Below are positions 9,598-28,368 of a stretch of DNA of 57,485 bases, piece after piece. The position numbers and the translations under genes were made by a program. Source of the stretch: a virus (taxonomy: Duplodnaviria > Heunggongvirae > Uroviricota > Caudoviricetes); IMG/VR virus record IMGVR_UViG_3300047476_001238, positions 79,712 to 137,196 of that record. One strand, written 5' to 3'. Each line of letters starts with the position of its first letter. The first letter of the stretch is position 1. Under the pieces are notes generated by a model, which was not told the origin of the DNA, did not search any database, and saw nothing but the letters and a program-made list of their open reading frames with translations.

Positions 9598-9803
9598 ATG
9601 GGCCGTTCGCCTGTTAGATAAGGCTTACTGAACCACAATTTAAACCACTCTTCAGTCCCAGGGCGAATATCATGTCGTTTCATGAGTTCGCCTTTTTCAT
9701 TTCCTGTGACTGATATGTTGCTACCAGCAAAGCCTTTGTATTCCTGCATTACTGCACGATTACCAATGCCTGCAAGTACCTTTAGTTGTTCAATATCGTT
9801 CAT
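9594..9803 (-). CDS. Small hypothetical protein carrying the LAG motif
   Basis: 69 aa, MNDIEQLKVLAGI; overlaps the upstream micro-ORF by 14 nt. Confidence 0.65.
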   Translation of the reverse strand: MNDIEQLKVLAGIGNRAVMQEYKGFAGSNISVTGNEKGELMKRHDIRPGTEEWFKLWFSKPYLTGERPI

Positions 9804-10611: not shown

Positions 10612-11043
10612 TTAAGATTTTGTGTAAGTTGTTACATAATTGCCGCCGGGTTTGATGTCTTTTCCTACTCCACCAAATCCAATGCCTTTATCCATTCTAA
10701 CTGTGTGTGTCTGTCCAGGAGTACCTAATGCTCCTGTTGTATCCTTGTATGCAGCAGAGACACTTGTGGTACCTCCCATTTGCCCCTTATTATAAGCCGG
10801 GGTGCTTTTTTGAGCTGAAAGATCTACACCATTTATATTTGTTTTTACTCCAACAGTTGATGCACCACCAGGATTGAAATCTCGAGTTGCTGTTAATTGC
10901 GTAGTATCATCTACATCAAGTTGTCCAGTAAATGTTTTAGTAGGTTTGTCTGCTGTAAATTTTGCATTGCCAAGATCTAAAGTGGCAGAGTCTTGTTCAT
11001 CAAGAATATCTAAATATCGTCTAAAGAATCTTGGGTCAGACAT
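10612..11043 (-). CDS. Hypothetical protein, probable internal head protein (start refined to 11043)
   Basis: MSDPRFFRRYLDILDE; TAATG coupling to the upstream gene. Confidence 0.55.
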   Translation of the reverse strand: MSDPRFFRRYLDILDEQDSATLDLGNAKFTADKPTKTFTGQLDVDDTTQLTATRDFNPGGASTVGVKTNINGVDLSAQKSTPAYNKGQMGGTTSVSAAYKDTTGALGTPGQTHTVRMDKGIGFGGVGKDIKPGGNYVTTYTKS

Positions 11044-12071
11044 TACCAACTCCTACACGACCAATAACGTGCCTTCCATCTTGGTCCCGGATTAGCGCAG
11101 TTGTGTCTTGCTCTGAAACTCTTACGACGTTTAGGGTTTGACTTTTTGATACGCATGTTAGGATCACCAAATTCAACTTTAACAATGTTGCCGTTTGGCT
11201 TTCTTACATACACTTTGGATTTCTTAACATCACCAGGCATTTTCTTGCCCAGTGGAACTGTGCGGCCTCTGTACTTTGCTTCATTGGTAGTGGCACGAAA
11301 TTGTGCCATTGGGCCTTGTCCACCTTTTTCAGTGTAGTCCATCCAAGGCTTACTTACATCCTGCTGAAACTCTTGTTCGTAGCTGTCGTCTTTCATTTTA
11401 TTGATAAGATAATCGCCGGCACCAGTTTTGGGATCTCTAGCAAAGGTGCGAGAAGTGTACTCTTGACTGAATTTTGGTTCACCTTTACTAGAATTAGAAT
11501 ATGTGGCTCTTTGATCTGCATAGGCCGATACCAGAGTTTTATTGTCTTTAGGAACCACTGGGCTTGTTGACTTATAGCTGTCAGATTTGGGATCGTACTT
11601 GTTTACACCACCGTGCTTGTCAGTCCAGCTATCTTGCCCCCACTTGAAATCATCTTCATGAACCATATAATCCTTGGGATCTTTTTTTGCTTTTGGTTCA
11701 GTTAACGGACTTGTATCAACAGGATTTCTTGTAGGCTTCTTTGGAGCAGTTGCTCCTGTATCTTTGGACATGTACTTGTTTTCAAGATCGTCATCGGCGC
11801 TTTTATCTTTGTTTACATTTGAATGTATTGGGCTTATAGTTTGAGTAGCAGGGGGCATGTTTGTTGGATTCTCTGTAATGTATCCCGCATGCGTTAAAAT
11901 TTTCATCATTGTGTCGTCTGCTTCTAATACTATTCCATCTTCAAATACATCAACAATGTATGTTTCAATCAAAGTTTCGTCTCTAGCGATTTCTAATTCA
12001 AACACATCACCTACCGCAGGATTACCTTCAGTTAATTCTGCTTCGGTTAGATAGTCACGAAAACTTTTCAT
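11043..12071 (-). CDS. Probable internal head protein with basic Cys/His C-terminal domain (start refined to 12071)
   Basis: MKSFRDYLTE resembles the T4 capsid-targeting sequence; C-terminus ...KSFRARHNC...RYWSCRSW. Confidence 0.6.
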   Translation of the reverse strand: MKSFRDYLTEAELTEGNPAVGDVFELEIARDETLIETYIVDVFEDGIVLEADDTMMKILTHAGYITENPTNMPPATQTISPIHSNVNKDKSADDDLENKYMSKDTGATAPKKPTRNPVDTSPLTEPKAKKDPKDYMVHEDDFKWGQDSWTDKHGGVNKYDPKSDSYKSTSPVVPKDNKTLVSAYADQRATYSNSSKGEPKFSQEYTSRTFARDPKTGAGDYLINKMKDDSYEQEFQQDVSKPWMDYTEKGGQGPMAQFRATTNEAKYRGRTVPLGKKMPGDVKKSKVYVRKPNGNIVKVEFGDPNMRIKKSNPKRRKSFRARHNCANPGPRWKARYWSCRSW

Positions 12072-12072
12072 A

Positions 12073-14430
12073 TCACTTGCCTTTCCACTGCTGAGGTGGT
12101 AATACTTTAATTGGCTCTCCATCTTTACCAACTACTTCGCCTTTGTCGGCTTGGAGTCTATTTAAGTGTGTATCATATCGATCATTGACTTGTTTTTCGT
12201 ACTCGGTACCTTTGTACTGCTTACGCATGGCGTCAAGATCACGTAATTGTTGACTGGTTCTTAGCTTGCTGGCCTCTGTACCTACTAGGTCACCAACAAA
12301 GTTTGAAACGTCGTCCCATCCTTCGTCAACTTCTTTTTCATCACCGCTACCAATTGTGACATGGCGTGGGCCACCAACACGATCATCCGAGGAGTGAGTT
12401 GTTAAAGGAAGTTTGGATTGATCTGGGGCGCCAGATTTTTTTGGTGGCGGAAATGTTGCACGTACTCTGCCTGTTTCTGGATCTTTTTTGATTTCAGGAT
12501 CATCTTTGTTGTCCCTAATCAAGATACTTTCCAACATGGCATCCAAATCTGCATCAAGCGTACTTTCGGCCATTGGATTGTCCCCCAACTTTGGCTTGTC
12601 TGCATATTGACGCTTTTCTCTATTTAGATCATTGCCTTGACGAATAATGCTGTCCACGGTTTGATATTCTTCTTCTGGAGTGTTTTCGTATTCTGTTTCT
12701 CTATCAGCTTCCATCATTTCTTCATCGCCGTCGGACATGACAACCATTGCTGGGCGATCGCTACTGTTCATACCTGCTAGTTTGAGCATTGATAATAGTT
12801 CGTCTGCTTTGTCGCCTTGAGCTGAGATGTTTACACTCTTTGTGCCGTTGCTGCTCATATTGGTGCTTACATTCATAGTGTCATGACTATTCATACCCAT
12901 GTCGCCGCATTCGTCTAATTTGCTTTCACTTAGTCCAGCCAAGCGAGCCAATTCACTTAAAGTATTATCCACAACTGGCTGTTCGGTCACAACAGACTCG
13001 CTCATGCTGCTGCCCATATCTGCATAGAAACGCTCCTCAACCCACTGATACGGATCACCTTCGCGACCTTTAGCAACGCCGTATGGCATTTCGCCTGTAT
13101 CAAGATAGTAATCGTACAGTGCATCGTATAGATTTTCTGCCATAAATCCATTGTTCATGAAATTTTTGACTTCATGTTTGAATCTATTAGCAATATGCTT
13201 TAGTGCATTGCCACCTTCATCTAACATAACATCTTCGTTGACTTTCTTAGGAAGGCCTTTGTGTTTGGTGCTTGCGAAATCTTTTGTGTCTTTTTTGCTC
13301 ATAGTTTTAGCTGCTTTCTTTAATTCAGGACTAGCGCCTTTGACCTTTTCACCTTTTTGCATAGCATGTACCATGCCCATAAATTTTTGTTGCTGTTTAC
13401 TAACAGCTTTTTCGTTTAATGCAAGTCCACTTAGGCGCATCATTTCTTCTAATTCCATGTTATCTTGTTCCTCTAATTCATCTTCGGCGAATTGTCCATA
13501 GCCACCAGCGGGTTTAGTAGCGGTAGTTGTAGCAGGTTCTGGGGCAGCATTCAGTGCTGCTGTGGCCGCTTGATCTGAAGTTTGTGTTGGTGCTGATTTA
13601 CTTGCCATTGCGGTAGCGGCATTATTTGTTGGCTGATTACCACCAAACATTCCTTTAACTTTGTCTCCTACTGCACTAGCAAAATCTCCAAAGCTGGCAT
13701 AGCTTTTTGTTGCTTGATTTTGTTGTCCATAAAGACCGCCAGCTTTTTGATCTGCTGCAATTTTGTCTGACGTTCTAGACACTACATTAGTGGTTCCTGC
13801 AACAGGTTGATAATCGCTTTTAGAGGCAGTAGCGGTGTTGGTCGCTGCTGGTGCAGTCTGCGGATTTACTTGTGCAACTGGCTTGTATGCACCGCTATTT
13901 ACTTGTGCTTGCAGTCTATCTCGTGCGGCAGTTGCTTCTTGATCTACGTTGGCATCTGCTGCTGGTGCTGTATTAAGTGCTGCTGTAGCAGTCTGGTCCG
14001 AGGTTTGTGTTGGTGCAGACTTACTTGCCATAGCTGCTGCGCCTCTTGTGTCAGTTGCTGGATTGTCAACTACTTCTTCGCCAGCATCTAATGATTGATC
14101 TGCTGGCACTGTTTGTGCCGCTTGATTGGTATCTGTAGCTGCAGGTTTTGCTACTCCGGCAACGTTGATATCTGTAGCAGCGCGATCTGAGATAGTTGGT
14201 GCAACAGCCGCTGTACCGGCTGGCTGCGGTTGGCTGAATTTCTTTGCTAGTGCCATGTTAGCTGCGGCTGTTCCGGCTGTAAACCCTGGACCTAGTGCTG
14301 CATCAACTTTGGCTTGATTCAATCTATCTGCTTTGTTCATGAACTGGCCGCCGCTTGTTTGTGCAAGTTTTGTCCCAGTTGCGCCTTGTGCCGGCGCTTC
14401 GAATAAGTCTATTAAGTCTCGCATGTTCAT
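12073..14430 (-). CDS. 785-aa probable internal head protein containing a DUF3008-like module
   Basis: KAVSKQQQKFMG...FASTKHKGLPKKV resembles DUF3008; three LxGL-type motifs; Ala/Thr-rich N-terminal half. Confidence 0.6.
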   Translation of the reverse strand: MNMRDLIDLFEAPAQGATGTKLAQTSGGQFMNKADRLNQAKVDAALGPGFTAGTAAANMALAKKFSQPQPAGTAAVAPTISDRAATDINVAGVAKPAATDTNQAAQTVPADQSLDAGEEVVDNPATDTRGAAAMASKSAPTQTSDQTATAALNTAPAADANVDQEATAARDRLQAQVNSGAYKPVAQVNPQTAPAATNTATASKSDYQPVAGTTNVVSRTSDKIAADQKAGGLYGQQNQATKSYASFGDFASAVGDKVKGMFGGNQPTNNAATAMASKSAPTQTSDQAATAALNAAPEPATTTATKPAGGYGQFAEDELEEQDNMELEEMMRLSGLALNEKAVSKQQQKFMGMVHAMQKGEKVKGASPELKKAAKTMSKKDTKDFASTKHKGLPKKVNEDVMLDEGGNALKHIANRFKHEVKNFMNNGFMAENLYDALYDYYLDTGEMPYGVAKGREGDPYQWVEERFYADMGSSMSESVVTEQPVVDNTLSELARLAGLSESKLDECGDMGMNSHDTMNVSTNMSSNGTKSVNISAQGDKADELLSMLKLAGMNSSDRPAMVVMSDGDEEMMEADRETEYENTPEEEYQTVDSIIRQGNDLNREKRQYADKPKLGDNPMAESTLDADLDAMLESILIRDNKDDPEIKKDPETGRVRATFPPPKKSGAPDQSKLPLTTHSSDDRVGGPRHVTIGSGDEKEVDEGWDDVSNFVGDLVGTEASKLRTSQQLRDLDAMRKQYKGTEYEKQVNDRYDTHLNRLQADKGEVVGKDGEPIKVLPPQQWKGK
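13549..14037 (-). repeat. Internal duplication of about 21 codons in the 785-aa gene (about 13972-14037 and 13549-13614)
   Basis: AMASKSAPTQTSDQTATAALN versus AMASKSAPTQTSDQAATAALN, with synonymous DNA differences. Confidence 0.85.
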
Positions 14431-14431
14431 T

Positions 14432-17400
14432 TTATTTTTTTGCCCTTCCAGCTAACCATAAAATATCTTTAAGTTCAGTATTTACCGATTCGGGAACTCG
14501 TATTGTTTCCCGATCAGCGGGCGGGCGTCGATTACCAGTAAGGGTATCAATTCCTTGATTCCATTTATCAACAAATGATTCTGGTTCTTGAGTTGATAGA
14601 TTTGGACTGATTTTTTCTAATTCTTTTCTGGCTTTTTCGTCGTCTATCTTTTTCTGTAGTTCTGCCTTGGCACGCTCAATATCTTGTTTGTCACTTGTGC
14701 CTGTTCCCCATGGCTTCCCAGTTCCAGAAACAACAGGAGTGCCGTCGGTGGAACGTAATACATCTGCGGGCTTACTACTAGCTAGACTAGCTGCAGAGGC
14801 AGAATCATCGGATGATACATCAAATCCGTGTATCCATAACTTGGCATCTCTAAGTCTTCTTTCGCGTTCCTCTGGAGATAATGCATCCATTTCTTTTCGT
14901 ATAGGATCCCACAACTCGTCGCTTTTTATTTCATCGGCGGTACGCGGTGCGGGTCTCACATCAGGATCCTGGCTTAATATTCTTTCTAGATCATCTGCAC
15001 GGCGTAATTTGGCTCTAGCACTTGCTTGGGCGTCTGCTGCTGCTTTATAACCTGCGCCAATTTTACTACCACTAGCATCTAAGTCTGCTTGTGATGGTCT
15101 GCTGACTTTTACCTTGGGAGCAACTTCATCAGCATAGTCAGTTGTGAATTGTGCTTCTTTACCAGTGACCGGATCTTTGAAAGTAAATGTTCCGCCACTG
15201 CCTTTACCAGTGTCCTGAATTTGTTTTGCTCTAGCTGCTGCAAATGCTTTTTCAAACTCTTTGCGAACATTAACTTTGGTATCTGCATCTGCCTTAGGTT
15301 CGGCATCTGCCTTTGGTTCTGACACTACCTTTGTACTTTTCTTTTCTTTCTTATCTACTGTTGCTACAGAAGCAGGTACTGCCGCAGGAGGTTCTGATTT
15401 GGCTGGAACTGTTGCTGTACTCACTCCCTTTGCAGGCTTAGCTAAGTCGGAGTCTGCTTTTGCAGATTGCGGTCCTATAGCAGGTACACTACTAGCGCGA
15501 CCAGACACAGACTGTTGCGTTGTTGTCTTTTCTGCTTTTTTGGTTGTTTTACCAGGTTCAATTACATTGCCAAAATCATCAACTGCTGGCATCTCTTTAG
15601 GTACTGGCGACGACTTTTTAGGTGTTTGTGTTTTTTCATCATTCCACCATTTTTGAAGTCTGTCGGCGATAGATCCTGGTTCTGTAGTTATAGAAATTTT
15701 AGTGTCAGTTCCTTTGTCTGAAGCTGCTTTATCCTTTGCGTAATCTTGCTTTAATTTCTCTAGCTGTTGTTTAAGTTCGCCTGTTTTCTTTCCTGCTGCT
15801 TCTGCTTGTTTAATAATGTTTTCAAGCTCTTTAACAGGATCTTTATAATTTTGTAATTGCTTATTGATTTTTGCCAATTCTGCTGCATCTGGGGCTCTTG
15901 GAGTCTTCCCGGAGCGATCGGCTTTTTCTGGCCCACCTTGATTGGATGGAAGTTCACCAGCAACTGCACTACCAATTGGTAGCATGTTAGTGATATTTTT
16001 AGCAATAGTTTTGTATCCTTTGGGATCAAGATGCAAATTCATTGGATCCTTTTTTGAGGCAGGTCCCAAATCAACTATTGGCGCTATTGTTTGTCCTTGT
16101 GTCATTGCTTGGCGCAACTGATCGCGCATTTGCTTTGTCTTGGGATTGTCAGTGGCAGTAGGTAATAAATGAACCACTTGAAGACCACGAGCTTTGGCAG
16201 CAGCAATCAGTTTGTTTACTTGACTGGTGATAACTTCTGGCTTGGCCGACGCAACATCGTTGCCTCCTCCGCTAATGGCCACAACACTACCTGGAGGAAT
16301 TTTTTCTATATTGGCCAAATGAACTTTAAACTGCTTGGGATCTAGTATACTGGCTCCACGATAGGCCATGCTTTTGTCCCACTGTTCGCCACCATAACCA
16401 GCCACACCCTGTGCTTGACTGTCGCCCACAGCATAATACCCTGGTCTTGCTGCTTTGGTGTCCCGCTTGGGTTCTGCGGTTTTTTGATCAACTCGTGCTA
16501 CTTGTGTTCCATCAATGCTGGTATCAATACCGTGAATCTGTTTAAGATCAGCAACTTGATCGTTTACCCATTTCCAACTTTTTGGTCCGTATCCTTGTTT
16601 GATTTCTGTTGCAGGTAAACTGGCCCATTGGCTTTTTAATTTTTTTACTGCATTTGTGTAGTCGCCTTTTAGTACAGAATCTAATGCACCTCGGTCGGCA
16701 ATCATTTGTATTGCAATTTTGTCTTGCGATTCCGGTCCAAAATCTTTAAGGCCTAATTTTTTAGAGTAAGGACCCCAATTGGCTCCCATAATTTGGTATT
16801 TACCGGCTGCATCACTAGGTATTGTTTTACCGCGTGATTTTAAATAAACTGTTTTGTTAGGATGCGAACTGAAGTCGTTGAATTTGCCGCCACCTACAAG
16901 TGTATTGTAATTGGTATTACCTTCTGCTCTTGCTATTAGATCCAGCATAACACGGATATTAGGATTTGTTCTAAGATCGTCTAAATCTAGTTCCTTTCGT
17001 TCCGACAGTTGAGCTTTGTAATCAAGATACTTTTCTGCTAATGTTTTTTCTTTACCCGCAGGTGCTTTGCCTTGTGGCGGCAAGTCTTTGATTGGAGATT
17101 CTGGTTCGGCTGCAGGTTTTTGAGGTGCAGGCGATGCCGGTGCCGGTTGATCTGTCGCTGGTGCAGGCGCTGGTGCTGATTGTTGCGTGTTTTGTTTATC
17201 TATAATGTCAGACAGTAATTCGCCTTCTTCGCCTTTTTTAATAATATCTTTTTCTGGTCCTCGGCGCCACCAGTCTATACCTTTTTGAACCACATCTGGT
17301 CCATAATAAAATCCGGTGCCCAGTGCCGCACCAGACCCACCCCACCGTAATCCTGTGCCTAATGCTTTTTTGCCAAACTCTTTTGCTGCACCTGTCAATG

Positions 17401-18175
17401 TTCCGCGCTCGAGTTCGCGCATCTTTAAAAGAGTGTCTAACTGTTGAGCGTGTTTGGCTGCATATTCTGGTCCCATGGCCGCTACTCTATCTGAGTAGGC
17501 CTTATCAGTCTCAAGACGTCCTCTTTTTGGTAATTCTACAGTTGTTGATGGTTCTCCGACTATTGGCGTATCGCCATCTGATTTTGGTTTCCCGCGACGA
17601 TCAATAACTTTAACTTCTTTTTCTGCTCGACGTGCTGCTTCTTCTTCTGCTCTAGCAATAGCATCGCGTTCAGCTGCGCTTAAAGGTGGCTTGGGTTCAA
17701 TACGAGGAGGAGCTTCGGGTGCACCTTTTCTAAGATTTTTAATCCAGTCCATGGCCATTGAGCCATATTTTTTAGGATTAAAAAGTATGTCTCTCAATCC
17801 GGCTTCGTCAAGCTGACCTGACTGTTCAAGACGATCTAGTTCTTCAAATCCCTCAGGTAAAAAACTAGGATCGTATTCTTGATTCTTTATTGAATCGTAA
17901 TACTCTTTACCAAGATTTACCCAGCCGCCTTTTTCTTTAGCATAATCACGCAATTGGTTTAGCGCATCAAGACCATAACTAGCCGCAGTAGCACCTCCGT
18001 GTGGTATAAAACCAATTCCAGTGGCTGCACCAGCAATGCCTGCACCAAGGTAATCGCCTTGTCCTGCTCTGATTGCAGCATCAACAAAACCAACACCCGG
18101 GGCTGACTTTTTTAAAACTTTAACAGCATCCCCTTCGTTAAGAGGCGACTGCTTGGCTATTTCATGGATTTTCAT
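14432..18175 (-). CDS. 1247-aa multidomain protein: lambda R-type lytic transglycosylase (about 16590-16970) plus SGNH hydrolase (about 15985-16440)
   Basis: MLDLIARAEG...YNTLVGG...HP...AGKYQI...LGLKDFGPESQD...WASLP parallels lambda R; GDSQ, GGND and LHL..GY SGNH blocks. Confidence 0.8.
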   Translation of the reverse strand: MKIHEIAKQSPLNEGDAVKVLKKSAPGVGFVDAAIRAGQGDYLGAGIAGAATGIGFIPHGGATAASYGLDALNQLRDYAKEKGGWVNLGKEYYDSIKNQEYDPSFLPEGFEELDRLEQSGQLDEAGLRDILFNPKKYGSMAMDWIKNLRKGAPEAPPRIEPKPPLSAAERDAIARAEEEAARRAEKEVKVIDRRGKPKSDGDTPIVGEPSTTVELPKRGRLETDKAYSDRVAAMGPEYAAKHAQQLDTLLKMRELERGTLTGAAKEFGKKALGTGLRWGGSGAALGTGFYYGPDVVQKGIDWWRRGPEKDIIKKGEEGELLSDIIDKQNTQQSAPAPAPATDQPAPASPAPQKPAAEPESPIKDLPPQGKAPAGKEKTLAEKYLDYKAQLSERKELDLDDLRTNPNIRVMLDLIARAEGNTNYNTLVGGGKFNDFSSHPNKTVYLKSRGKTIPSDAAGKYQIMGANWGPYSKKLGLKDFGPESQDKIAIQMIADRGALDSVLKGDYTNAVKKLKSQWASLPATEIKQGYGPKSWKWVNDQVADLKQIHGIDTSIDGTQVARVDQKTAEPKRDTKAARPGYYAVGDSQAQGVAGYGGEQWDKSMAYRGASILDPKQFKVHLANIEKIPPGSVVAISGGGNDVASAKPEVITSQVNKLIAAAKARGLQVVHLLPTATDNPKTKQMRDQLRQAMTQGQTIAPIVDLGPASKKDPMNLHLDPKGYKTIAKNITNMLPIGSAVAGELPSNQGGPEKADRSGKTPRAPDAAELAKINKQLQNYKDPVKELENIIKQAEAAGKKTGELKQQLEKLKQDYAKDKAASDKGTDTKISITTEPGSIADRLQKWWNDEKTQTPKKSSPVPKEMPAVDDFGNVIEPGKTTKKAEKTTTQQSVSGRASSVPAIGPQSAKADSDLAKPAKGVSTATVPAKSEPPAAVPASVATVDKKEKKSTKVVSEPKADAEPKADADTKVNVRKEFEKAFAAARAKQIQDTGKGSGGTFTFKDPVTGKEAQFTTDYADEVAPKVKVSRPSQADLDASGSKIGAGYKAAADAQASARAKLRRADDLERILSQDPDVRPAPRTADEIKSDELWDPIRKEMDALSPEERERRLRDAKLWIHGFDVSSDDSASAASLASSKPADVLRSTDGTPVVSGTGKPWGTGTSDKQDIERAKAELQKKIDDEKARKELEKISPNLSTQEPESFVDKWNQGIDTLTGNRRPPADRETIRVPESVNTELKDILWLAGRAKK

Positions 18176-18966
18176 TTTGCAAATTTGTCTTTCTTGGGAC
18201 GGCCACGGCCTTTCTTTGCTACCTCACCTGTTTCATTGTCTGTGTCTGGTTCGTCTTTTTGTGCTGATCCACCATAACGTTTACCGGCTTTGATTCCACT
18301 ACCGCCGCTGGGCTGAGGGCCGCTGCGTTCTTTGGCAGCTTTCATCATGTCGTCCCATCCCTCGTGTACTGGCTCCATTTCGCCGTCGCCGTCTAGGTCA
18401 GCTTGCTTTAAACCTTGTGCTCTGGCTTTTGCAAGATTGCCTGAAAACTTATTACCTTCAGTTTTCTTGTCTTTCTTGGCGCCTGCAATTTTGTCTGCGT
18501 AAGTAATTTTGTCTTTGGGCTCAGCTAACGCTGCAAACTTCTTTTGTGCAGGTGACAGCATGTCTTCGTTGTATTCACCTTCATCCATCTTGTCGTGTTT
18601 AGCACGAATCTTGGCCATTTTTTCTTTGCTAGCACCATCGCGCCCAGCTTGTTGTAGGGCCTTCATGCCTTGCTCGCCGTATTTCTTTTTACCCAAGTAA
18701 GCTTGTAAGCCGCTTTCTTCCATCTCGCGTTCGCTCAATTGTTTTTTGTGATTGTTGTATTTCTCTGCCAACTGTTTTTCAACACGAGCAACTGCTTCGC
18801 CAATAGCACCTTTACTTTTTTCTTTGGCAGCTTTTTTCAATGGTTCTTTCTTGTCACTATCTTTATCAAGGAAATCAGGCTTGGCTTTTTTGCCTTCATT
18901 TAGGCTCTGCTTGGGTGCTTCTAGGTTTTCCATCTTCTTTAAGATGTCATAGATATTGTTGCTCAT
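18172..18966 (-). CDS. Highly charged probable internal head protein
   Basis: Lys/Glu-rich, several hydrophobic-x-E sites, DLDGDGE (Dx[DN]xDG-type) motif. Confidence 0.55.
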   Translation of the reverse strand: MSNNIYDILKKMENLEAPKQSLNEGKKAKPDFLDKDSDKKEPLKKAAKEKSKGAIGEAVARVEKQLAEKYNNHKKQLSEREMEESGLQAYLGKKKYGEQGMKALQQAGRDGASKEKMAKIRAKHDKMDEGEYNEDMLSPAQKKFAALAEPKDKITYADKIAGAKKDKKTEGNKFSGNLAKARAQGLKQADLDGDGEMEPVHEGWDDMMKAAKERSGPQPSGGSGIKAGKRYGGSAQKDEPDTDNETGEVAKKGRGRPKKDKFAK

Positions 18967-19586
18967 TTGTTTTTTCCTTTAATGGGTGGTAATTTATTTT
19001 GTTGGCTTCCTACCGGGCTCTTAGTGCCTTGTGGTAGTGCATTAGTTGTTTGCGCTGGCTTGGTTCTTTCGCTGGCACGGGTTGAAGTTAATTCTGGCTC
19101 TTTAAATCCAGTTAACTTAGGTGACTGTGCGTCTAGTTCTTTTAATAAACTGTCTTTGCGTTTGTCGCCCACTAGGTCCTGTCCGCCAGGAACGTCTTGA
19201 AGTTCACTGTCCAATAGCAATGACCCTTCGTGGTCTTTGCCATATGCTTCAGCATAATCATTTTGATCGGCTTGTTGTTTACCGTAAACACAAACCCACT
19301 CAGCTTGCATGCCGGTGCGCTCTTTTAACAGTTGTGCAATTTGTACACTGGTTGTGGGGTAAGCAACTGTGGCTTCAAACTGCCAGCATTCGCAAGGTCC
19401 CCATTTTGGAAACTCTCTGTGTTCTTGTACGGGCATACTTTTTGGTGCGGTAATATCTACCAGCTCGTACGCATCAAGAGCATTCTTAATTTCTTCCATA
19501 ATATCTTTAGGATCTTGCTTTGCTACTTTGATCCTAAAAGCATAATTTGAATTTCGTTCGGCTATATAATCGTGAAGACTTTTCAT
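18963..19586 (-). CDS. Probable internal head protein
   Basis: MKSLHDYIAE N-terminus; TAAATA box (19610-19615) and AGGA SD. Confidence 0.6.
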   Translation of the reverse strand: MKSLHDYIAERNSNYAFRIKVAKQDPKDIMEEIKNALDAYELVDITAPKSMPVQEHREFPKWGPCECWQFEATVAYPTTSVQIAQLLKERTGMQAEWVCVYGKQQADQNDYAEAYGKDHEGSLLLDSELQDVPGGQDLVGDKRKDSLLKELDAQSPKLTGFKEPELTSTRASERTKPAQTTNALPQGTKSPVGSQQNKLPPIKGKNK

Positions 19587-19612
19587 AGGTTTTATCCTGT
19601 TTTATAGAGTAT

Positions 19613-20110
19613 TTATGTGTTTTTGTTCTTTTGGAGAATCTGTTCCAGTAGTGCATTGCGATCCAGCACAATACCTTGTCCATCTATAGGACGATCCTCG
19701 GGACTATCTTTGCTCATTTGATGATCTAATCTGGCCTTTTGTAGCTGTAATTGTACCATACGCAGCTTCTTGTCCATCTTGGCTGTTTTTGCAGTAATAG
19801 CATGCCCCAACAGTGTGCCGGCAGTTTGAAATACTACCCCGCCAAAACGCGGATCCATATTCATTCCTAGGTCCATTAGATCTTCAAACTTGCTTTTTGC
19901 TAAGTCAGCCAGTTCATCCATTTCTTCGTCGCTGGCTTCAAGATCGCGCACAGTGGGCAACGCTATATCAATCTTGTCTATAGCATCATCAACCCTGGCA
20001 ATGATGTCTTTGTTTTCGGCAATTGTTTTGAGTGCGTCATCGGACTCTGCAGAATCTGTTGACGGGAGATCTGTGGGTAGATCAAATAGTTCAGATAATT
20101 TTTTGGTCAT
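19613..20110 (-). CDS. Possible terminase small subunit (gp16-like)
   Basis: Size, helical character and DPRFGGVVFQTAGTLL loosely resemble the gp16 core; next to gp4; weak evidence. Confidence 0.4.
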   Translation of the reverse strand: MTKKLSELFDLPTDLPSTDSAESDDALKTIAENKDIIARVDDAIDKIDIALPTVRDLEASDEEMDELADLAKSKFEDLMDLGMNMDPRFGGVVFQTAGTLLGHAITAKTAKMDKKLRMVQLQLQKARLDHQMSKDSPEDRPIDGQGIVLDRNALLEQILQKNKNT

Positions 20111-20118
20111 GCTCGTAT

Positions 20119-20556
20119 TTACCGAGCTCGTCCTTGATGAAACATATCATTTTCTGTTAGTACCCGGAATCGCAGTCCGTTTTGGCTGCACCAGGCTTGT
20201 GCAGCTTGCCATTTATACATGTTCAATACTGCTGCTGCTTGATCTCTAGCACTACGTGCTTCTTGTAAGTTTGTTTGTTTATTTGGTTTAATTTCAATCA
20301 GCTCGCCAAATTTTTCACCATTTTTGTTTACATACATGATCATGAAATCAGGTACGTAGATTGTGTTCTTGTTTGTAAACGGATTACGATAGGGAATGTG
20401 TATAGCTTCACTGGCCCATTGCAACACTGCTGGATTGGTATCACAGAAGCGCATGAAAGTATGTTCCCAACTGCTTCTGAAATGCGGAACTTTCTTTCCC
20501 ACATACTTGTCTGGGTTCATGATTTGATAGAACCCGTTTGCAAACTTTGCAGCCAT
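20119..20556 (-). CDS. 4: Head completion nuclease, T4 gp4-like
   Basis: NPDKYVG, FRSSWE, WASE, IPY, YVPDF, IEIKP. Confidence 0.9.
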   Translation of the reverse strand: MAAKFANGFYQIMNPDKYVGKKVPHFRSSWEHTFMRFCDTNPAVLQWASEAIHIPYRNPFTNKNTIYVPDFMIMYVNKNGEKFGELIEIKPNKQTNLQEARSARDQAAAVLNMYKWQAAQAWCSQNGLRFRVLTENDMFHQGRAR

Positions 20557-20951
20557 TATGGTCTAATAGATCTTTGTATATATTTGTTAACTTGAGGCTG
20601 GTTGCTTAACCCTAGGTAGCTGGTACCTTTGCGTTCAAAATTTAAAAACATCGCTGTGTATGCATCAAGTTCGCCTTTTGGCAGTTTTTGAAATTCTTTC
20701 AATGTTTCCATTGGATTAAGTCCTTGCTTGACACTGGTATATATAACCGCACTGGCAAGAGCTCGAGCCGATTCTTTGTTGTCTGTGACTTGTTCAAAAT
20801 ATGCCACAATAGCTGAATCAACGTTGCTGCTGACTTCAACTGGTATTTCAAAAAAATTATTAAAATACTTGTTGGTATCTTTTGTCTCAATAGCATTTAA
20901 ATTGATTTGTCCTAGATTGGTAGGTTCTTTTGCTCGTATTAAATTGGCCAT
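20556..20951 (-). CDS. Hypothetical protein, probably structural
   Basis: 131 aa; coupled to gp4 (TAATG); no family recognised. Confidence 0.6.
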   Translation of the reverse strand: MANLIRAKEPTNLGQINLNAIETKDTNKYFNNFFEIPVEVSSNVDSAIVAYFEQVTDNKESARALASAVIYTSVKQGLNPMETLKEFQKLPKGELDAYTAMFLNFERKGTSYLGLSNQPQVNKYIQRSIRP

Positions 20952-20952
20952 A

Positions 20953-21135
20953 TCAATCTTTCATTATTTTTTGATTGCTGGGCACTCGAGGAATAGTGGT
21001 ACCCATTGAGCTGGTATTTGTTGATTCCAGGTATTTTTCCTGTGTGATCCGATCTGCGTTTGCCTGCTGTTCTGCAGTAAGGCCGCTGCTATTTCCAAAT
21101 AGTGTAGTTGAAAAAATTTGACTGTTTGCTGTCAT
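20953..21135 (-). CDS. Small hypothetical protein (start refined to 21135)
   Basis: MTANSQIFS... fills the gap between flanking genes with 1-nt spacing on each side. Confidence 0.5.
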   Translation of the reverse strand: MTANSQIFSTTLFGNSSGLTAEQQANADRITQEKYLESTNTSSMGTTIPRVPSNQKIMKD

Positions 21136-21136
21136 T

Positions 21137-22792: not shown

Positions 22793-22818
22793 AATATACC
22801 TTTTAAAATATTTATGCC

Positions 22819-22846
22819 AAAAAAAATACCCGGATTTCTCCGGGTA
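22819..22846 (-). terminator. Rho-independent terminator after the tail tube gene
   Basis: TACCCGGA-GAAA-TCCGGGTA followed by T8. Confidence 0.9.
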
Positions 22847-22868
22847 CTCAAAAGTAAAACTTTTTTAA

Positions 22869-23492
22869 TTAGGTCACGCCTGTGATCAATGTGCCTAGAG
22901 TACGTCCTACTGCTGTTCCAACTCCGGTACCAGTTGGAGTTTGGATTGCATTGTCGTATGTGACTGTTAGTGTGATATCTGCAGGACTATTTTCTGAATA
23001 TGACATTTCACCGTAGTTTACTTGGTTAACAAATGCGCCATACAGCTCCCATGTTTCTAATACGTTAGGTTGATTAGCTCCGTTGCCGCCATCTAACATT
23101 TCAAATTTTAGAACAAATTTATAATCAATACCAGAGCTGGCCGATGCTTGTTCCATAAAATCAAACTGCTTCTGAATCTGTTCACCAACTAACTTAGACA
23201 CGTTGCCGCCTGCATCATCTCGTAATACAACTGTCACTGGTTCCCAACTTGGTTTACCAACTAAGTTAACCTTGCTGTTATAAGCCTCAATAACAAAAGG
23301 ATTGAAGTTTACATTAGGACGGCTAATGCTATTAACTTGTTTGGTTAATTCTACTCTGTCGCTACTTACACCAAAATTTTCAAATACCGCACGGAAGCGA
23401 TATTTTAACTTAGGCATTAGCAGACCTTGTGTGCTAGCACTCTGATTAGTTGCTAAAGGTACTGTAAATCTGTTTAATGAGGCTATTGCCAT
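22869..23492 (-). CDS. 19: Tail tube protein gp19
   Basis: PKLKYRFR, GKPSWEPVTVVLRDD, WELYGAFV, LTVTYDNA; follows the sheath gene. Confidence 0.9.
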   Translation of the reverse strand: MAIASLNRFTVPLATNQSASTQGLLMPKLKYRFRAVFENFGVSSDRVELTKQVNSISRPNVNFNPFVIEAYNSKVNLVGKPSWEPVTVVLRDDAGGNVSKLVGEQIQKQFDFMEQASASSGIDYKFVLKFEMLDGGNGANQPNVLETWELYGAFVNQVNYGEMSYSENSPADITLTVTYDNAIQTPTGTGVGTAVGRTLGTLITGVT

Positions 23493-23541
23493 TTATATTC
23501 TCCTGTTATAGGTATTTATCAATTTTTTTCCAAAATTTTTC

Positions 23542-23560
23542 GGGGGTAAAAATTACCCCC
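23542..23560. other. Perfect 8-bp hairpin between sheath and tube genes, without a U-tract
   Basis: GGGGGTAA-AAA-TTACCCCC. Confidence 0.6.
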
Positions 23561-23568
23561 TACCCATA

Positions 23569-26500
23569 TTATACGCCTGCTGCTATGTCACCTGGATTCT
23601 TTAATCTAATTGGAATAAAGATAAACTCAACATCCTTCATTGGTTCGATCGCAATGTCTACATACAATTCATTACGAGCAATACGTGTAGGTGTGTTGTT
23701 GGTGTCATCACAAACAACTAGATAATCGTAAATACCGCGTTTAGCTACAAGATCATTAATTGCACCTGAGATAATATTCTTGATCTGGTCGCGAGTAATT
23801 TTATCATTAGGTTCAAACAAGAATCCGTTGCCAACATTGGCCAGTATTGTACGGATGTAGTTAACTAGACGTGCAACATTGATACGATCAAGACTGCTTG
23901 CAGTTGGGTTGCGAGTCTTTTGACCCCAAACAACTAGGCCAACACCTGGTAAGTTAGTGATTGGATTGATCTTGTTTTCGTATAATGTGTCACGTAAACC
24001 AGTACGAATACTGTTGAATTCAAATTCGCCTGTGGTAGCATTGATATAACCAATGCTGCTTGCATTGTCAACTAGTCCACGACGTGTACCAGCTGGTGCA
24101 AACCATTGATATGCAACGTTATCGTTAAAAATCATTGTGCGTAATGCCATATGACTTGCAGGAACAACAATGTCATTGCCTTGTAAGTCGCTGCTTCTAC
24201 CGCAAGGATAGTAAACGCCCAAGTAAGGATCAGCAGTTGCTAGACCGTCTCCGTTGGTATTATTGCTCCAGTTTGCAATGTCAATTGCATTAGGTGCCAG
24301 TCTCATTGGAGTGTCGCCAATGATAAATGCAGTGTTTGCACGATCATTGTTTAATGCTACCATTTCATCAATTAGTTCTGGATAACCTGGAGCACAAATA
24401 ATATTAAATGCATACTGTTCTTCTCTTACTTCTGTGTTTGCAATAATTGCTGCTTGCATAGCCGCTGTGACCATGCGACGCTGTGCTTGGCGACCCATAT
24501 AAGGACTGCCGTTATCCTTCAATCCGCTAGCTGTTTGCCATGTATCTTTGACAGCCGGTAAAGAACTGCCTGCACCTGGAACAGCTGGTAGATCAGGATA
24601 AGCGTTTGCATTGAACTTGTTGCTAACAAATTGTTTTACATTATAACCGCTACGACGGGTGTTGAATAACAACATACCACGTGGATATAGTCTGTAGTCT
24701 GGTGCATCCTGATCTAGATAATCACTTTCTAGTAGATCAGTAATTGCAGGCAATGAACCTGTAATAATGTCAGTGGTGCCGTCAGTGTCCCAACGTGCAT
24801 CAGCAAACACAATACCGTTTTGGCTTACTTGATCAGTGTTGTCAATCAAGATCCATGTATTGTTGTCGTCGTATCTGTATAGTGCAGGATAGTTTTCCAA
24901 GTCGCCGGTATCTAGCCATAGATCACCTGGAACTAAAGAAGTCACGCCGTCGCTTTGTTTTGTTGGCTCGCTTGCGCTAATAATAACACCGTTTGTGTCT
25001 GTAGCTGACAAATCATATCCTCGTGCATCAGTGGTGCTACCATCATAGTATGAACTATGATATGCTCTCCATCCACCAATTTCGTTGATCATGATGTCAA
25101 CTGATGCTGGATCACTGTAGTACCATAAAGTACCTTCTGCAGGTGCTCGGTATGGCTCAGTGGTGCTGTAAGTCAATACAAACGACGAAGTGTTTGGAAT
25201 TTCCCAGTTGGTCAATGCCAATGTGCTGCCGTATTGTAAAATACCAGTACTGCCGTCTACTGTGGTTGCACTAAATCCTGCATCCGAAGTTGGTGTACCC
25301 ACACTGTCTGTCAAATAAATGTCACCACCGTAAATGTGTGTAAATGTGATTACACCGCTGGTACTAACAGAGATATTAAGTTCAGGAATATTTAAAGCCA
25401 ACACATCACTAACAAACGATGCACGTGATGTACCAGTTAGAACTACAGTATATTCAATGATATTAGCTGATCCAATTTCAGTGACACCAATTACCAATTC
25501 GTCACTTGCTGTAAATGGGTTTGCGCCAACAGCGGTACCACCAATTACAGTTTGCCCGCTGGTGCGTCTACGGAATACTTTGTATCCACCTGTATCAGTA
25601 CGTAATGGATCGTATGCTACCCATAAGGTGCCTGCTGCGATACCATTTCCGCCGCCACTAGAATCTAATCCATAAATTGCATCTTCTGCACGATTGTAGA
25701 ATGGTGCTGCCAAAGTTGCCCAGGTATCGGTGCTGGAACTGTATCGTTTGACAACAATATCTGCACCGCTACCAGTTGCGCCAACTTTTGCAAACACGCT
25801 ACCGCTTGGACGAGGAACTGTGTCTGTGCTTCTCCAGCTTGGCATGGCTGCAAAATCACCGTATGTTAAAATAGGATTAGCATATGTACCAGCTGTAATT
25901 CCTAACAGTGTTAATGGAGCACCTGACAAGTTAGACGAAATAGCAATTTTACCATCAGCAGTTGAACCGTTGCTTTGTGCCAAGTTGCTTGCATATAGAT
26001 ATATTTTTCCGTTTACATTGGCTGCTGTGACACCAGTAATTGCTGCTGTATTAATTGCATTAACAATGTAATCTAGACTTCTTGTGACCGAAGTGTTCTG
26101 TAAATCAACAGTTTCAGTGTTGATAGTAATTGTATAAGAAGTTCCGTTTACAGGAGCTAATGGATTAGATGCTGTACCTTTGATTGCTGGCCAAGCAGTT
26201 TGCCATGCAGTGGTTCCCAATCTTACCCAAGTGTTGTAGTTTGCATTGTCTGTACGTAAATTATTACCTGCTTTGTAGAATAGGTTAGCATTTGTGCCTG
26301 TCCATGCTACAGCGTACTGACCAATTTGACCAATGCTGGTTTTTGGAACGTAAATACCACCGGATAAAGTAGCGTCAGTTGCATTGTCGGTGATTAGTAA
26401 TGGAGTCTTTAAACTGAACACATTGTTTACTGCGTCCCATTCATTGATGCCCCAAGTTGACTCTGCTAGATCCATCCAATGAGTTCCGTTTTCAACAGCA

Positions 26501-26880
26501 CCTGTTGGACGTACACTAGTACCTTCTAGTGCATTAAGATCTACGTCTGCACGGATAGCATAAATTCTGTTCACGTTGCCTAGTGCGCTATAAGCTGCCA
26601 TTAAGCCATATTCGTTTCGCTCATCTCCATGCAAAGGAGTGCCTGCTGCGCTTTGCTTGAAGCTAGGATATCCCATTGCGCTAATAAGTTCGCGCTGGCT
26701 ACTAAATGCCAATAGTCTACCTGCTCTAGCAGCGGTAGTATCAGACGCTAGGGCACCTGATGGATTTGTTTTATTTTGTGCAGTGGCCATTACAATTAAT
26801 GGAACAGTGCCAACTGCGCCTGGTACGTATTGACTTTCGTCGGTTACGCTAATTTCTAAACCTGGAGATACTAGTGCCAT
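23569..26880 (-). CDS. 18: Tail sheath protein gp18, enlarged to 1103 aa (start refined to 26880)
   Basis: LVSPG, APGYP, RDTLYENKINPI, WGQKT, LDRINVARL, FEPND. Confidence 0.95.
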   Translation of the reverse strand: MALVSPGLEISVTDESQYVPGAVGTVPLIVMATAQNKTNPSGALASDTTAARAGRLLAFSSQRELISAMGYPSFKQSAAGTPLHGDERNEYGLMAAYSALGNVNRIYAIRADVDLNALEGTSVRPTGAVENGTHWMDLAESTWGINEWDAVNNVFSLKTPLLITDNATDATLSGGIYVPKTSIGQIGQYAVAWTGTNANLFYKAGNNLRTDNANYNTWVRLGTTAWQTAWPAIKGTASNPLAPVNGTSYTITINTETVDLQNTSVTRSLDYIVNAINTAAITGVTAANVNGKIYLYASNLAQSNGSTADGKIAISSNLSGAPLTLLGITAGTYANPILTYGDFAAMPSWRSTDTVPRPSGSVFAKVGATGSGADIVVKRYSSSTDTWATLAAPFYNRAEDAIYGLDSSGGGNGIAAGTLWVAYDPLRTDTGGYKVFRRRTSGQTVIGGTAVGANPFTASDELVIGVTEIGSANIIEYTVVLTGTSRASFVSDVLALNIPELNISVSTSGVITFTHIYGGDIYLTDSVGTPTSDAGFSATTVDGSTGILQYGSTLALTNWEIPNTSSFVLTYSTTEPYRAPAEGTLWYYSDPASVDIMINEIGGWRAYHSSYYDGSTTDARGYDLSATDTNGVIISASEPTKQSDGVTSLVPGDLWLDTGDLENYPALYRYDDNNTWILIDNTDQVSQNGIVFADARWDTDGTTDIITGSLPAITDLLESDYLDQDAPDYRLYPRGMLLFNTRRSGYNVKQFVSNKFNANAYPDLPAVPGAGSSLPAVKDTWQTASGLKDNGSPYMGRQAQRRMVTAAMQAAIIANTEVREEQYAFNIICAPGYPELIDEMVALNNDRANTAFIIGDTPMRLAPNAIDIANWSNNTNGDGLATADPYLGVYYPCGRSSDLQGNDIVVPASHMALRTMIFNDNVAYQWFAPAGTRRGLVDNASSIGYINATTGEFEFNSIRTGLRDTLYENKINPITNLPGVGLVVWGQKTRNPTASSLDRINVARLVNYIRTILANVGNGFLFEPNDKITRDQIKNIISGAINDLVAKRGIYDYLVVCDDTNNTPTRIARNELYVDIAIEPMKDVEFIFIPIRLKNPGDIAAGV

Positions 26881-26909
26881 GTTTTTATCCTTTAACAAAC
26901 ATTTTGTAG

Positions 26910-26974
26910 TATTTATAAAAGGATATCTATTTTTGGTGGTTAGAGGTGCCTTTCGAAAGGTTTACCTATAAATA
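26910..26974. promoter_or_regulatory. Back-to-back TATAAATA late promoters separated by a 12-bp palindrome
   Basis: TATAAATA on minus 26917-26910 and on plus 26967-26974; CCTTTCGAAAGG at 26949-26960. Confidence 0.8.
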
Positions 26975-26979
26975 TCTGT

Positions 26980-27324
26980 ATGAATAGACCTTTATGTACC
27001 ATATGTCATGGCAATCCTGTTGCAATCAATTACCATTCTGAGGGAAAAGTACGTTATAGGAAACTGTGTTCCAGTTGTGCTCGCAAAGGAAAACGCACTC
27101 GTGCTTTACCCGGGTGGATTAAAGCAGGCTACAAGAAGAAAACTGTGTGTGATAAATGTGGCTTTAAAGCCAAATCAATCAATCAAATATTCGTGTTCCA
27201 CATTGATGGTAATTTAAAGAACAACGATTGGAGCAATCTTAAATCAGTGTGTGCAAACTGTAGGATTGAGATACACAATACTAAGACGACCTGGCGCGAG
27301 AGTCCGTTAGTAGCAGATTATTAA
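26980..27324 (+). CDS. Zn-finger/HNH-like protein with degenerate active site
   Basis: Four CxxC pairs; FVFHIDGNLKNNDWSNLKSVCANCRIEIH. Confidence 0.7.
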   Translation: MNRPLCTICHGNPVAINYHSEGKVRYRKLCSSCARKGKRTRALPGWIKAGYKKKTVCDKCGFKAKSINQIFVFHIDGNLKNNDWSNLKSVCANCRIEIHNTKTTWRESPLVADY

Positions 27325-27946
27325 CTTGAGCGTATAGTTCTTCAACTGTACCGTTATTATCAAGCTCGTAGTTGAACGTTTGTCCTATCCAGGCCCATTC
27401 GCTGTGATGTACGTTAGGATACCGCTGGGGCATCAATTGCTCTGCATCTTCCAGTAGCCATTGCTCATCTTCGTGGGTGGTATTTTCTGTTAAAGCACAA
27501 TCGTACCACTCAGGCAATTCGCCACGTTTTACCCATACACAAATGCCACCAGCTTTACGTATAGCTGTTAACTCGTTAGGGAATCTGACGTCACTGATCA
27601 CGATGTTTTCAGTAGTTTTACGCAGTCGGTTTTCTAGACTAGCAATCCAGATGTCGTTATGAAAGCCTCGACGGCACACTTCAGTTCCCCAAAGTTGCAG
27701 CATGTATCGGGGAGTGAGTCGGGGCATATCCAATCTTTTAGACCACCACGGATCCACTTGTTCGCGCCATTCACGGGCTTCAGGAGTGAGTCCTTCTAGT
27801 AGTTCTCTGTCCCACCCAAATACCTTTGCTACTGCATCTTTGAGTGTGCCAGCAAAGCTGTCTCTAACAAACCCGTGTTTGGCTACCAAGTAGTTGGCCG
27901 CAGTATCTTTACCTGAACCAATGAATCCTGTAATTCCTATGATCAT
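27281..27946 (-). CDS. 1: Deoxynucleoside monophosphate kinase, T4 gp1-like
   Basis: P-loop GITGFIGSGKDT, FAGTLKD, LQLWGTE, ISDVRFPNE, HHSE. Confidence 0.92.
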   Translation of the reverse strand: MIIGITGFIGSGKDTAANYLVAKHGFVRDSFAGTLKDAVAKVFGWDRELLEGLTPEAREWREQVDPWWSKRLDMPRLTPRYMLQLWGTEVCRRGFHNDIWIASLENRLRKTTENIVISDVRFPNELTAIRKAGGICVWVKRGELPEWYDCALTENTTHEDEQWLLEDAEQLMPQRYPNVHHSEWAWIGQTFNYELDNNGTVEELYAQVNNLLLTDSRARSS

Positions 27947-27949
27947 AAA

Positions 27950-27997
27950 AAATGCCCCTTATAGGAGCATTTTAGTTTATTTGTTGTCAAAAGTCAA
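27950..27997 (-). promoter_or_regulatory. Sigma70 promoter for gene 1 overlapping an SD-sequestering, terminator-like hairpin
   Basis: TTGACT 27997-27992, N17, TAAAAT 27974-27969; hairpin AAAAUGCUCCU-AUA-AGGGGCAUUUU then UUAUG. Confidence 0.7.
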
Positions 27998-28368
27998 ACA
28001 CCATATTTGTTCTTTTTCTTAGATGCTACGGGGCTTGCTCGGTTAACTGTTGGGCCTTCTTGACTGCGTAGATCACCTTTATTGATATCTTCTACGTTGG
28101 CATCAACTGCTTTATACGCTAAATTTAACATGTCTTGTTCAAGTTGAGTGTAAGGTGCTGCCAGTTTCCATTTACCTACCCACGACTCGTCGTCTACATC
28201 GGGCATGGTTTTGCCATCTGTGCTAGCTACTGCTAGTCCTAAACGATAAAGAGTATAATCGCCATTCCATTTTTTAGCATCAGAAAATTTGTTCATGCCG
28301 CGTTGGGCCAGTCGCTGCCTATCCTTTAATACCCCGGCTTGTTCTAGCACTATTTCTTTAATTTTCAT
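27994..28368 (-). CDS. Hypothetical late protein (start refined to 28368)
   Basis: MKIKEIVLE N-terminus; TAATG coupling to gp13. Confidence 0.6.
   Translation of the reverse strand: MKIKEIVLEQAGVLKDRQRLAQRGMNKFSDAKKWNGDYTLYRLGLAVASTDGKTMPDVDDESWVGKWKLAAPYTQLEQDMLNLAYKAVDANVEDINKGDLRSQEGPTVNRASPVASKKKNKYGV

Follow-up and report, generated by a model that had tools for sequence, protein, structure and literature searches.

A block of genes in an uncultured jumbo phage encodes proteins with short N-terminal leaders that resemble the capsid-targeting sequence (CTS) of the internal proteins (IPs) of phage T4. The DNA analyzed here, hereafter the window, is a stretch of 57,485 nucleotides that forms the end of the 137-kb IMG/VR record IMGVR_UViG_3300047476_001238 (positions 79,712 to 137,196 of that record, which is estimated to be ~37% complete). 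On balance, we favor the reading that this phage would use a T4-type capsid-targeting and protease-propeptide system, as a Rak2/PA5oct-like jumbo phage with several leader classes and a hypervariable locus of large internal proteins. The phage is an uncultured freshwater jumbo myophage (size ~350 kb) that is related to T4, has a T4-type head core and belongs to the Rak2/PA5oct-like group. Almost all window genes are located on the minus strand, and the window encodes a tail sheath, a tail tube and a gp4-type head-completion protein.

T4-like leaders at the start of seven proteins

The T4 proteins IPII and IPIII both begin with MKTYQEFIAE, as the earlier note on this DNA had it and as the T4 record reads, and IPI begins with MKTFKEFTST...TITE. 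For packaging, the first 10 residues of IPIII are enough; targeting depends on CTS residues 4 and 7 and processing on residues 8 and 10, and an Asp at position 10 stops processing but not targeting (PMC9026906). The gp21 prohead protease cleaves the CTSs off IPI, IPII and IPIII (Mullaney and Black 1996, reviewed in PMC9026906 and PMC3012670).

Seven N-termini of this kind had been proposed, and all seven were confirmed, on the minus strand and at the proposed starts (Table 1). These refined starts gain support from the relatives, in which the open frame extends no more than a few codons upstream of each Met. All seven proteins possess an N-terminal leader of the ~10-20-residue type with hydrophobic targeting residues. 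The leaders of g207 and g342, designated class A, have Leu or Phe at position 4, Tyr at position 7, Ile or Leu at position 8 and usually Glu at position 10, and differ from MKTYQEFIAE by conservative changes only. The strict T4-like pattern MK[STN][FYL]x[DE][FY][ILV] occurs only twice in the six frames of the 137-kb contig, at exactly these two gene starts, which speaks against chance. The proposal of about 9 kb of contiguous genes holds for the block 10612-19586, in which genes abut or overlap by ATGA in an operon-like manner, but not for g124, which is located 8 kb away with tail and neck genes in between.

A looser core, [DE][IYLF][IVLA]xE located 2-5 residues after the start Met, was found in six open reading frames (ORFs) against ~0.6 expected (Poisson P ~5e-5). 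A conserved [LIVFM]xE within the first 30 residues is present in 8/8 block families versus 2/12 control families (Fisher P 4e-4, calculated on related contigs); in the control families (sheath, tube, tube-like, gp4, dNMP kinase, neck and others) the motif occurs in 0-24% of the members, except for the 165-aa protein and the large terminase. Further leader-like ORFs are located on the contig outside the window (Table 1).

Pfam, PHROG and NCBIfam gave no match of the block proteins to the T4 IPI, IPII, IPIII or Alt families, and NCBIfam gave no matches at all for six block proteins. The block proteins thus appear to be like the T4 IPs in the way they work, not members of those protein families.

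Leader classes and the terminal [LIVF]-x-E motif in relatives

The relatives comprise 39 IMG/VR contigs that encode the 207-aa protein at 50-94% identity. The interval from the head-completion gene (with the gene of a 165-aa protein) to the large terminase gene is hypervariable among these contigs, with a varying number of genes and proteins of 100-1386 aa. The leaders fall into class A (MKS[LF]x[DE]Y[IL]), class B (MKIx[DE]I[IV]xE, or longer forms ending in P[LV]xE), class C (MNMRxL[IL]x[LI][FI]E), class D (M[DN]PKLxRxYS[DN]I[IL]xE and M[ST]DPRFFRxYLDILxE), class E (MSNNIYDILKK..LE....LxE) and class F (MTKRSLKQIEESL...[FL]AE).

Classes B to F keep an [LIVF]-x-Glu at the leader end in 60/61 distinct sequences, namely 15/16 for class B, 9/9 for class C, 13/13 for class D, 19/19 for class E and 4/4 for class F. 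Individual Glu residues are equally constant: E9 of g124 in 18/18, E11 of g785 in 9/9 and E15/16 of class D in 13/13. The class E site is found at residue 24, 25, 26 or 27 and shifts with indels, and the sequence beyond the leader Glu is variable and indel-tolerant. For g264, the site NLE16 had to be abandoned: its P3 position is variable and non-hydrophobic and one relative has LD, while the conserved L-x-E comprises residues 22-24 (SLNE/G, the slash marking the putative cut). In class A, positions 4, 7 and 8 are invariant or conservatively replaced in the relatives.

Protein-level selection and exchange of leaders

The share of nonsynonymous codon differences in the class E leader is 0.08 (127 of 1555, the remaining 1428 being synonymous), compared to 0.77 in the next 20 codons. 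The corresponding values are 0.46 versus 0.82 for class B and 0.67 versus 0.90 for class C. Conserved leader residues are encoded by several synonymous codons, as are I3 and I6 in the g124 family. Since synonymous changes are abundant and the residues are fixed, an explanation at the RNA level or by translation initiation is strongly disfavored.

Within this genome, the leader-bearing proteins have no detectable similarity beyond residue 20. Class A is nevertheless shared by g207 and g342, class B by g124, g1247 and two ORFs outside the window (MRIREIITE and (V)KIRDIVSE), and class C by g785 and the ORF starting with MNLRKYINLFE. Conversely, the g785 core (aa 332-640) is 59-75% identical to proteins with class D leaders in relatives, and the lysozyme-esterase core of g1247 is found behind three different leaders. 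The same cores behind different leaders indicate that leaders are exchanged as modules. Single-linkage clustering of the block bodies across relatives placed classes B, C, D, F and G together in a single mosaic group, hence the statement that the bodies are unrelated holds within this genome and not across all relatives.

The prohead protease and the capsid maturation site

The window encodes a Peptidase S77 of the T4 gp21 family. Its His (LGEVDHP versus LGELNHP in T4) and Ser (GVSSRG in both) align with T4 gp21, and we take these to be the catalytic residues of gp21. The adjacent scaffold is the protein richest in [LI]xE sites (18 versus 7.4 expected), which fits its breakdown by the protease, as with T4 gp22.

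The major capsid protein shares 68-70% identity with its counterparts in Pseudomonas phage PA5oct, Vibrio phage 2.275.O and Sinorhizobium phage Phosso. In 80 relatives it contains ..RKHL-x-E (x being M, T, A, V, K or Q) followed by [T/A/S]ATAG: the P3 Leu and P1 Glu are invariant and P2 is free. This L-x-E site is located just upstream of the gp23 domain, like LTE/A of T4 gp23. Judged by its sequence, the site has the pattern expected for an L-x-E-specific protease and matches the putative leader ends.

The LAG motif as a possible second signal

The scaffold tail ..KRLAGLK is invariant in relatives, and the PA5oct scaffold ends with ..RRLAGIK. The motif [RKLW]LAG[LIVMR] gives six matches in the long ORFs of the contig, all in five proteins: the scaffold, the C-termini of g480 and g1247, g785 (twice, internally, as ..ELARLAGLSE.. 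and ..MLKLAGMN..) and a 100-aa ORF outside the window. The latter, starting with MKITDIIRG (10868-11170 of the contig), contains an internal ..QRLAGIL... Among relatives, 16/17 class B proteins of ≥ 400 aa and 3/4 class F proteins end with ..IL[RKW]LAG[RK]K and 11/11 class C proteins have an internal LAG motif, in contrast to classes A and E, which never do. The earlier proposal of a two-signal loading system therefore survives in part: LAG and leader co-occur on large proteins, but small proteins lack LAG. The co-occurrence is real and limited to large proteins; the role of LAG as an address is a prediction. When the scaffold was modeled in complex with residues 1-45 of g264, the score was 0.00 in a run without controls, which counts neither way on binding.

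LAG also occurs close to the N-terminus of other proteins. A 69-aa protein with N-proximal ..EQLKVLAGIGN.. (..EQLKVLAGIGNRAVMQEYKGF..) is conserved beside the terminase gene in many relatives. In GAP32, XaC1, Vibrio 2.275.O, Phosso and PA5oct, the same block holds a protein with an N-proximal ..L..[LM]..LAG.. (e.g. ..TLSRMLALAGQ.. and MFNINDILRLAGV); the GAP32 and PA5oct versions carry a virion-protein annotation. The loci of these five proteins are listed in Table 1.

Counterparts in cultured jumbo phages

PA5oct gp202 (MKSFRDYYDA...) is homologous to g207 (pairwise E 4e-6) and collinear with it, following the head-completion gene and a homologue of the 165-aa protein. In the PA5oct record, gp202, gp203 and gp205 carry an ESI-MS/MS flag. 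Strict class B leaders in the 281 kb of PA5oct are found only in gp150 (MKINDIITE, beside the portal gene), gp238 (MKIKDILVE) and gp271, and the first two are flagged by ESI-MS/MS. Two of three strict class B proteins are therefore flagged, or three of four when gp202 is counted (P 0.03-0.1, suggestive but too few to decide). GAP32_204, 206, 207 and 208 are annotated as 'virion structural protein'. The g207 homologues start with MNKLQKILTE in GAP32_204, MKDLNTILTE in Vibrio 2.275.O and MNRLQEILTA in XaC1.

PA5oct gp150, gp202, gp203 and gp238 and GAP32_204 to 208, from Rak2-like ('group 2.2') jumbo phages, thus resemble the block proteins in their synteny after the head-completion gene, in the MKSF.../MNKL...ILTE starts of the g207 homologues, in the presence of N-proximal ..LAG.. 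proteins and in their annotation as detected in virions. They differ in that these cultured phages have two to five such genes and little leader diversity. The PA5oct, RaK2, CBB and comparative jumbo-phage papers (PMC7318152, PMC3622015, PMC5259590, PMC7824862) do not mention leaders, a CTS or cut sites for these genes, and full-text searches combining CTS and jumbo phages returned phiKZ-like work only.

Proposed mechanism and alternative explanations

The block 10612-19586, g124 and several ORFs elsewhere would encode virion-internal proteins that are brought into the assembling prohead by short N-terminal amphipathic leaders. By analogy with T4, the leader may be what docks each protein onto the scaffolding core. 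Next, the S77 (gp21-type) protease would cleave behind the Glu in the terminal [LIVF]-x-E, in the same way as at L-x-E42 in the capsid protein, and free the mature protein inside the head, while the C-terminal LAG motif of the large proteins may be a second scaffold contact. At least the 1247-aa lysozyme/esterase protein would be ejected and act on the cell wall. A more far-reaching version is tentative and clearly less probable than the targeting and processing system as such: a modular two-address system in which at least five interchangeable, cleavable leader classes together with a C-terminal scaffold-type LAG tail recruit very large, rapidly exchanged cargo (including the 1247-aa lysozyme-esterase) from a hypervariable cassette immediately preceding the large terminase gene, with subsequent ejection of this cargo into the host.

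Several observations weigh against head targeting with cleavage. The class A Glu10 is replaced by Q, S or A in 5/31 distinct g207-family sequences and by Q or L in 6/16 distinct g342-family sequences (E10 in 10/16), and is missing in the homologues of PA5oct (MKSFRDYYDA), XaC1 (..ILTA) and Phosso (..YLSS). The two closest T4 look-alikes consequently have the least secure predicted cut site, and class A leaders more likely act in targeting without being obligatorily cleaved. Conservation of the g207 leader does not exceed that of the body (0.45 versus 0.39), and this leader could be the first helix of the fold. A conserved N-terminal LxE is also found in the large terminase and the 165-aa protein, so that an LxE site alone is not diagnostic. 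[LI]xE is not avoided in the protein bodies, being slightly depleted in g1247 (4 versus 8.9) and neutral or enriched in the others, which makes the avoidance test uninformative. On the side of the virion data, PA5oct gp271 has a leader and no MS flag, and the PA5oct virion list includes obvious non-structural enzymes (RNR, ligase, thymidylate synthase), which renders an MS flag soft evidence. Virion lysozymes of myoviruses usually reside in the baseplate hub. Lastly, for every protein we infer cleavage, a location in the head as opposed to the tail, and ejection.

The strongest rival, which we nevertheless consider rather unlikely, holds that the N-termini stay on the proteins as docking or structural helices, where they aid joining of the virion or serve as the initial helix of a fold, and that the Glu is incidental. 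The variation and loss of Glu10 in the g207 and g342 families would follow naturally, as would the g207 leader, a helix packed before a ferredoxin-like core and not more conserved than the body; in T4, too, targeting survives the loss of processing that Asp at CTS position 10 causes (PMC9026906). This explanation does not account for the near-complete retention of [LIVF]-x-E in classes B-F, for the class E site that moves with indels, for the variable, indel-rich linkers that follow the Glu, or for the same motif at the capsid maturation site.

Two further readings are more improbable still, and to a similar degree. The large block proteins could be tail- or baseplate-internal parts, either tape-measure-like or hub-associated and wall-degrading, with leaders that serve tail assembly. 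The lysozyme domain of g1247 is of a kind found in baseplate hubs and some tape-measure proteins, a weak match to the 'hub' chain 8KEA was obtained, PHROG matches include 'tail fiber protein/lysozyme', and the proteins are long and of low complexity. Yet the leaders end in a head-protease motif like those of T4 head proteins, the C-terminal LAG is common to the scaffold, and the genes are flanked by those for head completion and the terminase and stand apart from the baseplate and fiber genes. Alternatively, the block proteins could be accessory, scaffold-like components of the prohead core that are degraded by the protease and expelled before DNA packaging, instead of cargo delivered to the host. 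The shared scaffold LAG tail, the [LI]xE-rich scaffold and the N-terminal LxE sites of the T4 core proteins gp22, gp67 and gp68 fit such a role, but the block proteins are not enriched in [LI]xE as the scaffold is, homologues are annotated in mature virions of PA5oct and GAP32, and a pair of cell-wall enzymes has no obvious use inside a prohead.

Finally, that the shared N-termini reflect chance or a nucleotide-level constraint on translation initiation is hardly credible and already disfavored by the computations: MK- starts and A/T-rich early codons are indeed common in highly expressed genes and a single LxE within 25 residues is expected in ~1/4 of proteins, but the residues are fixed amid abundant synonymous changes, both enrichment tests are significant and the strict pattern is confined to two gene starts.

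Comparison with known head-processing systems

Like the CTSs of the T4 IPs, the leaders are short (9-24 aa here, 10-19 aa in T4), begin with MK, carry hydrophobic or aromatic residues at positions 4 and 7 and end with [LI]-x-E. In both cases the proteins behind one and the same leader are unrelated to each other, evolve fast and are mostly basic, and the gene of a gp21-family protease is close by. In contrast to T4, there are at least five leader classes instead of one, the putative cargo is as large as 1247 aa in this phage and 1386 aa in relatives (~80-190 aa in T4), a single hypervariable block before the large terminase gene holds the genes, and large members add the scaffold C-terminal LAG. 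Moreover, none of the bodies has homology to a T4 IP, the most T4-like class does not always retain its Glu, and the system is known here from sequence alone.

The T4 head proteins gp24 (MAKINELLRE), gp22 (MLKEQLIAE) and Inh (MIDKDYIAE) have starts that resemble class B (MKIKEIVLE) and class A (MKSLHDYIAE). Class B is closely similar to the gp24 propeptide, and one relative (locus L030) has MKINEILRE. In T4, these three are structural, core or inhibitor proteins, and a homologue of any of them was not found in the block. The phiKZ-like giants (phiKZ, 201phi2-1, SPN3US; PMC5694885, PMC10052503) also have many head proteins, including enzymes, and a gp21-related protease that cuts after Glu at x-x-E. 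However, they belong to another jumbo lineage and use S/A-x-E and mostly long propeptides (>100 aa), and their processing was mapped by mass spectrometry. The system described here extends a known mechanism and is not a new principle.

Features of the block and its surroundings

Table 1. Location of the leader-bearing genes, head genes and related features. Positions are those of the window unless contig positions or another locus are indicated; a slash marks the putative cut.
Feature	Position	Strand	Details
g207, 207 aa	18963..19586	-	class A leader MKSLHDYIAE at 19557-19586; ferredoxin-like core aa 15-114; disordered basic tail
g264, 264 aa, charged	18172..18966	-	start MSNNIYDILKKMENLE; class E leader MSNNIYDILKK...SLNE/G at 18895-18966
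g1247, 1247 aa	14432..18175	-	class B leader MKIHEIAKQSPLNE/G at 18134-18175; C-terminal ..ILWLAGRAKK at 14435-14482
g1247, lambda-R-type lysozyme domain	~16571-16921	-
g1247, SGNH/GDSL domain	~15992-16420	-
g785, 785 aa, low-complexity	12073..14430	-	class C leader MNMRDLIDLFE/A at 14398-14430; DUF3008-like segment
g342, 342 aa	11043..12071	-	class A leader MKSFRDYLTE/A at 12042-12071; conserved N-domain; C-terminal ~80-aa Cys/basic domain
g143, 143 aa	10612..11043	-	class D leader MSDPRFFRRYLDILDE/Q at 10996-11043
g124, 124 aa	27994..28368	-	class B leader MKIKEIVLE/Q at 28342-28368, then indel-tolerant linker; between neck gene and dNMP kinase gene
Prohead protease, Peptidase S77 (T4 gp21 family)	56511..57152	-	PF03420, 91 bits versus cut-off 27; 5JBL (T4 gp21 structure), E 3e-15
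Scaffold (gp22 position)	55394..56500	-	C-terminus ..IKRLAGLK
Major capsid protein (gp23 family)	54171..55367	-	putative maturation site L40-M41-E42/T43 at 55242-55250
Head-completion protein (gp4 family)	20119..20556	-	upstream block border
Conserved 165-aa protein (MTKKLSELFDLP...)	19613..20110	-	upstream block border; follows head-completion gene
Large terminase subunit	7497..9059	-	downstream block border; E 9e-55 versus T4 gp17
g480, 480 aa, 'virion structural protein' family	6038..7480	-	ends with ..RRLAGLKF, scaffold-like tail, no leader
69-aa protein	9594..9803	-	N-proximal LAG
Leader-like ORF outside window	contig 27170-27583		MRIREIITE
Leader-like ORF outside window	contig 30773-31885		MYFEFVEYLME
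Leader-like ORF outside window	contig 32628-33320		(V)KIRDIVSE
Leader-like ORF outside window	contig 19405-19854		MNLRKYINLFE
Leader-like ORF outside window	contig 73193-74653		MRDLINIILNE
Leader-like ORF outside window	contig 10868-11170		MKITDIIRG
N-proximal LAG protein	L134:15597-16553
N-proximal LAG protein	L135:15981-16901
N-proximal LAG protein	L048:17526-18761
N-proximal LAG protein	L001:17906-19120
N-proximal LAG protein	L043:45321-46817

The lysozyme (lytic transglycosylase) domain of g1247 (~aa 419-535) matches 1AM7 (E 1e-24), and its ..ARAEGN.. presumably sits where lambda R has its catalytic Glu motif. The g264 C-terminus (GRGRPKKDKFAK, ..KKGRGRPKKDKFAK; 18172-18213) has an RGRP core, which we liken to the AT-hook consensus, and is kept in many relatives (..GRGRPKKD[KR]FA); this suggests that g264 may bind DNA inside the capsid. 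In the g207 model, a helix (residues 4-11) precedes the ferredoxin-like core, and a fold search with this model returned generic ferredoxin-like matches only, with no functional lead. The AlphaFold model of g124 was unusable (pLDDT 40) and an ESM Atlas look-up of this protein yielded no informative neighbor. In g143, Glu16 (the putative P1) is the sole Glu among 143 residues. The C-terminal ~80 aa of g342 (11043-11282, ..RARHNCANPGPRWKARYWSCRSW) are 41-69% identical to stand-alone small proteins of Pelagibacter, Roseobacter, Methylophilales and Flavobacterium phages and also match ORFs of Nitrosopumilaceae spindle-shaped viruses; some of the matches are annotated as 'HVA1 family protein'.

At the end of the block, 10165-10599 encodes a staphylococcal-nuclease-family protein with a signal peptide (MKKLFAILLLAPALAFA) that is conserved in relatives, some of which have a secreted protein of 265-270 aa in its place. 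A plus-strand ORF (9070-9597, 175 aa), located where the terminase gene and the block meet, is possibly an insert of the homing-endonuclease type; few plus-strand ORFs are present in the window. Outside the window, the neighbor of the MRIREIITE ORF matches a 'virion structural protein' PHROG. The 165-aa protein was considered as small terminase subunit given its size and position, but it has no BLAST similarity to T4 gp16 and the name was dropped; its PHROG family has no assigned function. A nucleotide search of the 20-kb region against the phage collection gave no match, and the T4 late promoter TATAAATA was found twice versus 4.3 times expected, i.e. without signal.

Implications for jumbo phage biology

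If the leaders work as in T4, the set of injected proteins would be readable from sequence alone in a large group of uncultured jumbo phages, whose members are abundant in IMG/VR (39 contigs for the block and >250 for the scaffold). The leaders could also serve as packaging tags in cultured relatives such as PA5oct. If the reading is true, the hypervariable block would be a catalogue of first-contact weapons, comprising wall-degrading enzymes, DNA-binding proteins and possible anti-defense factors.

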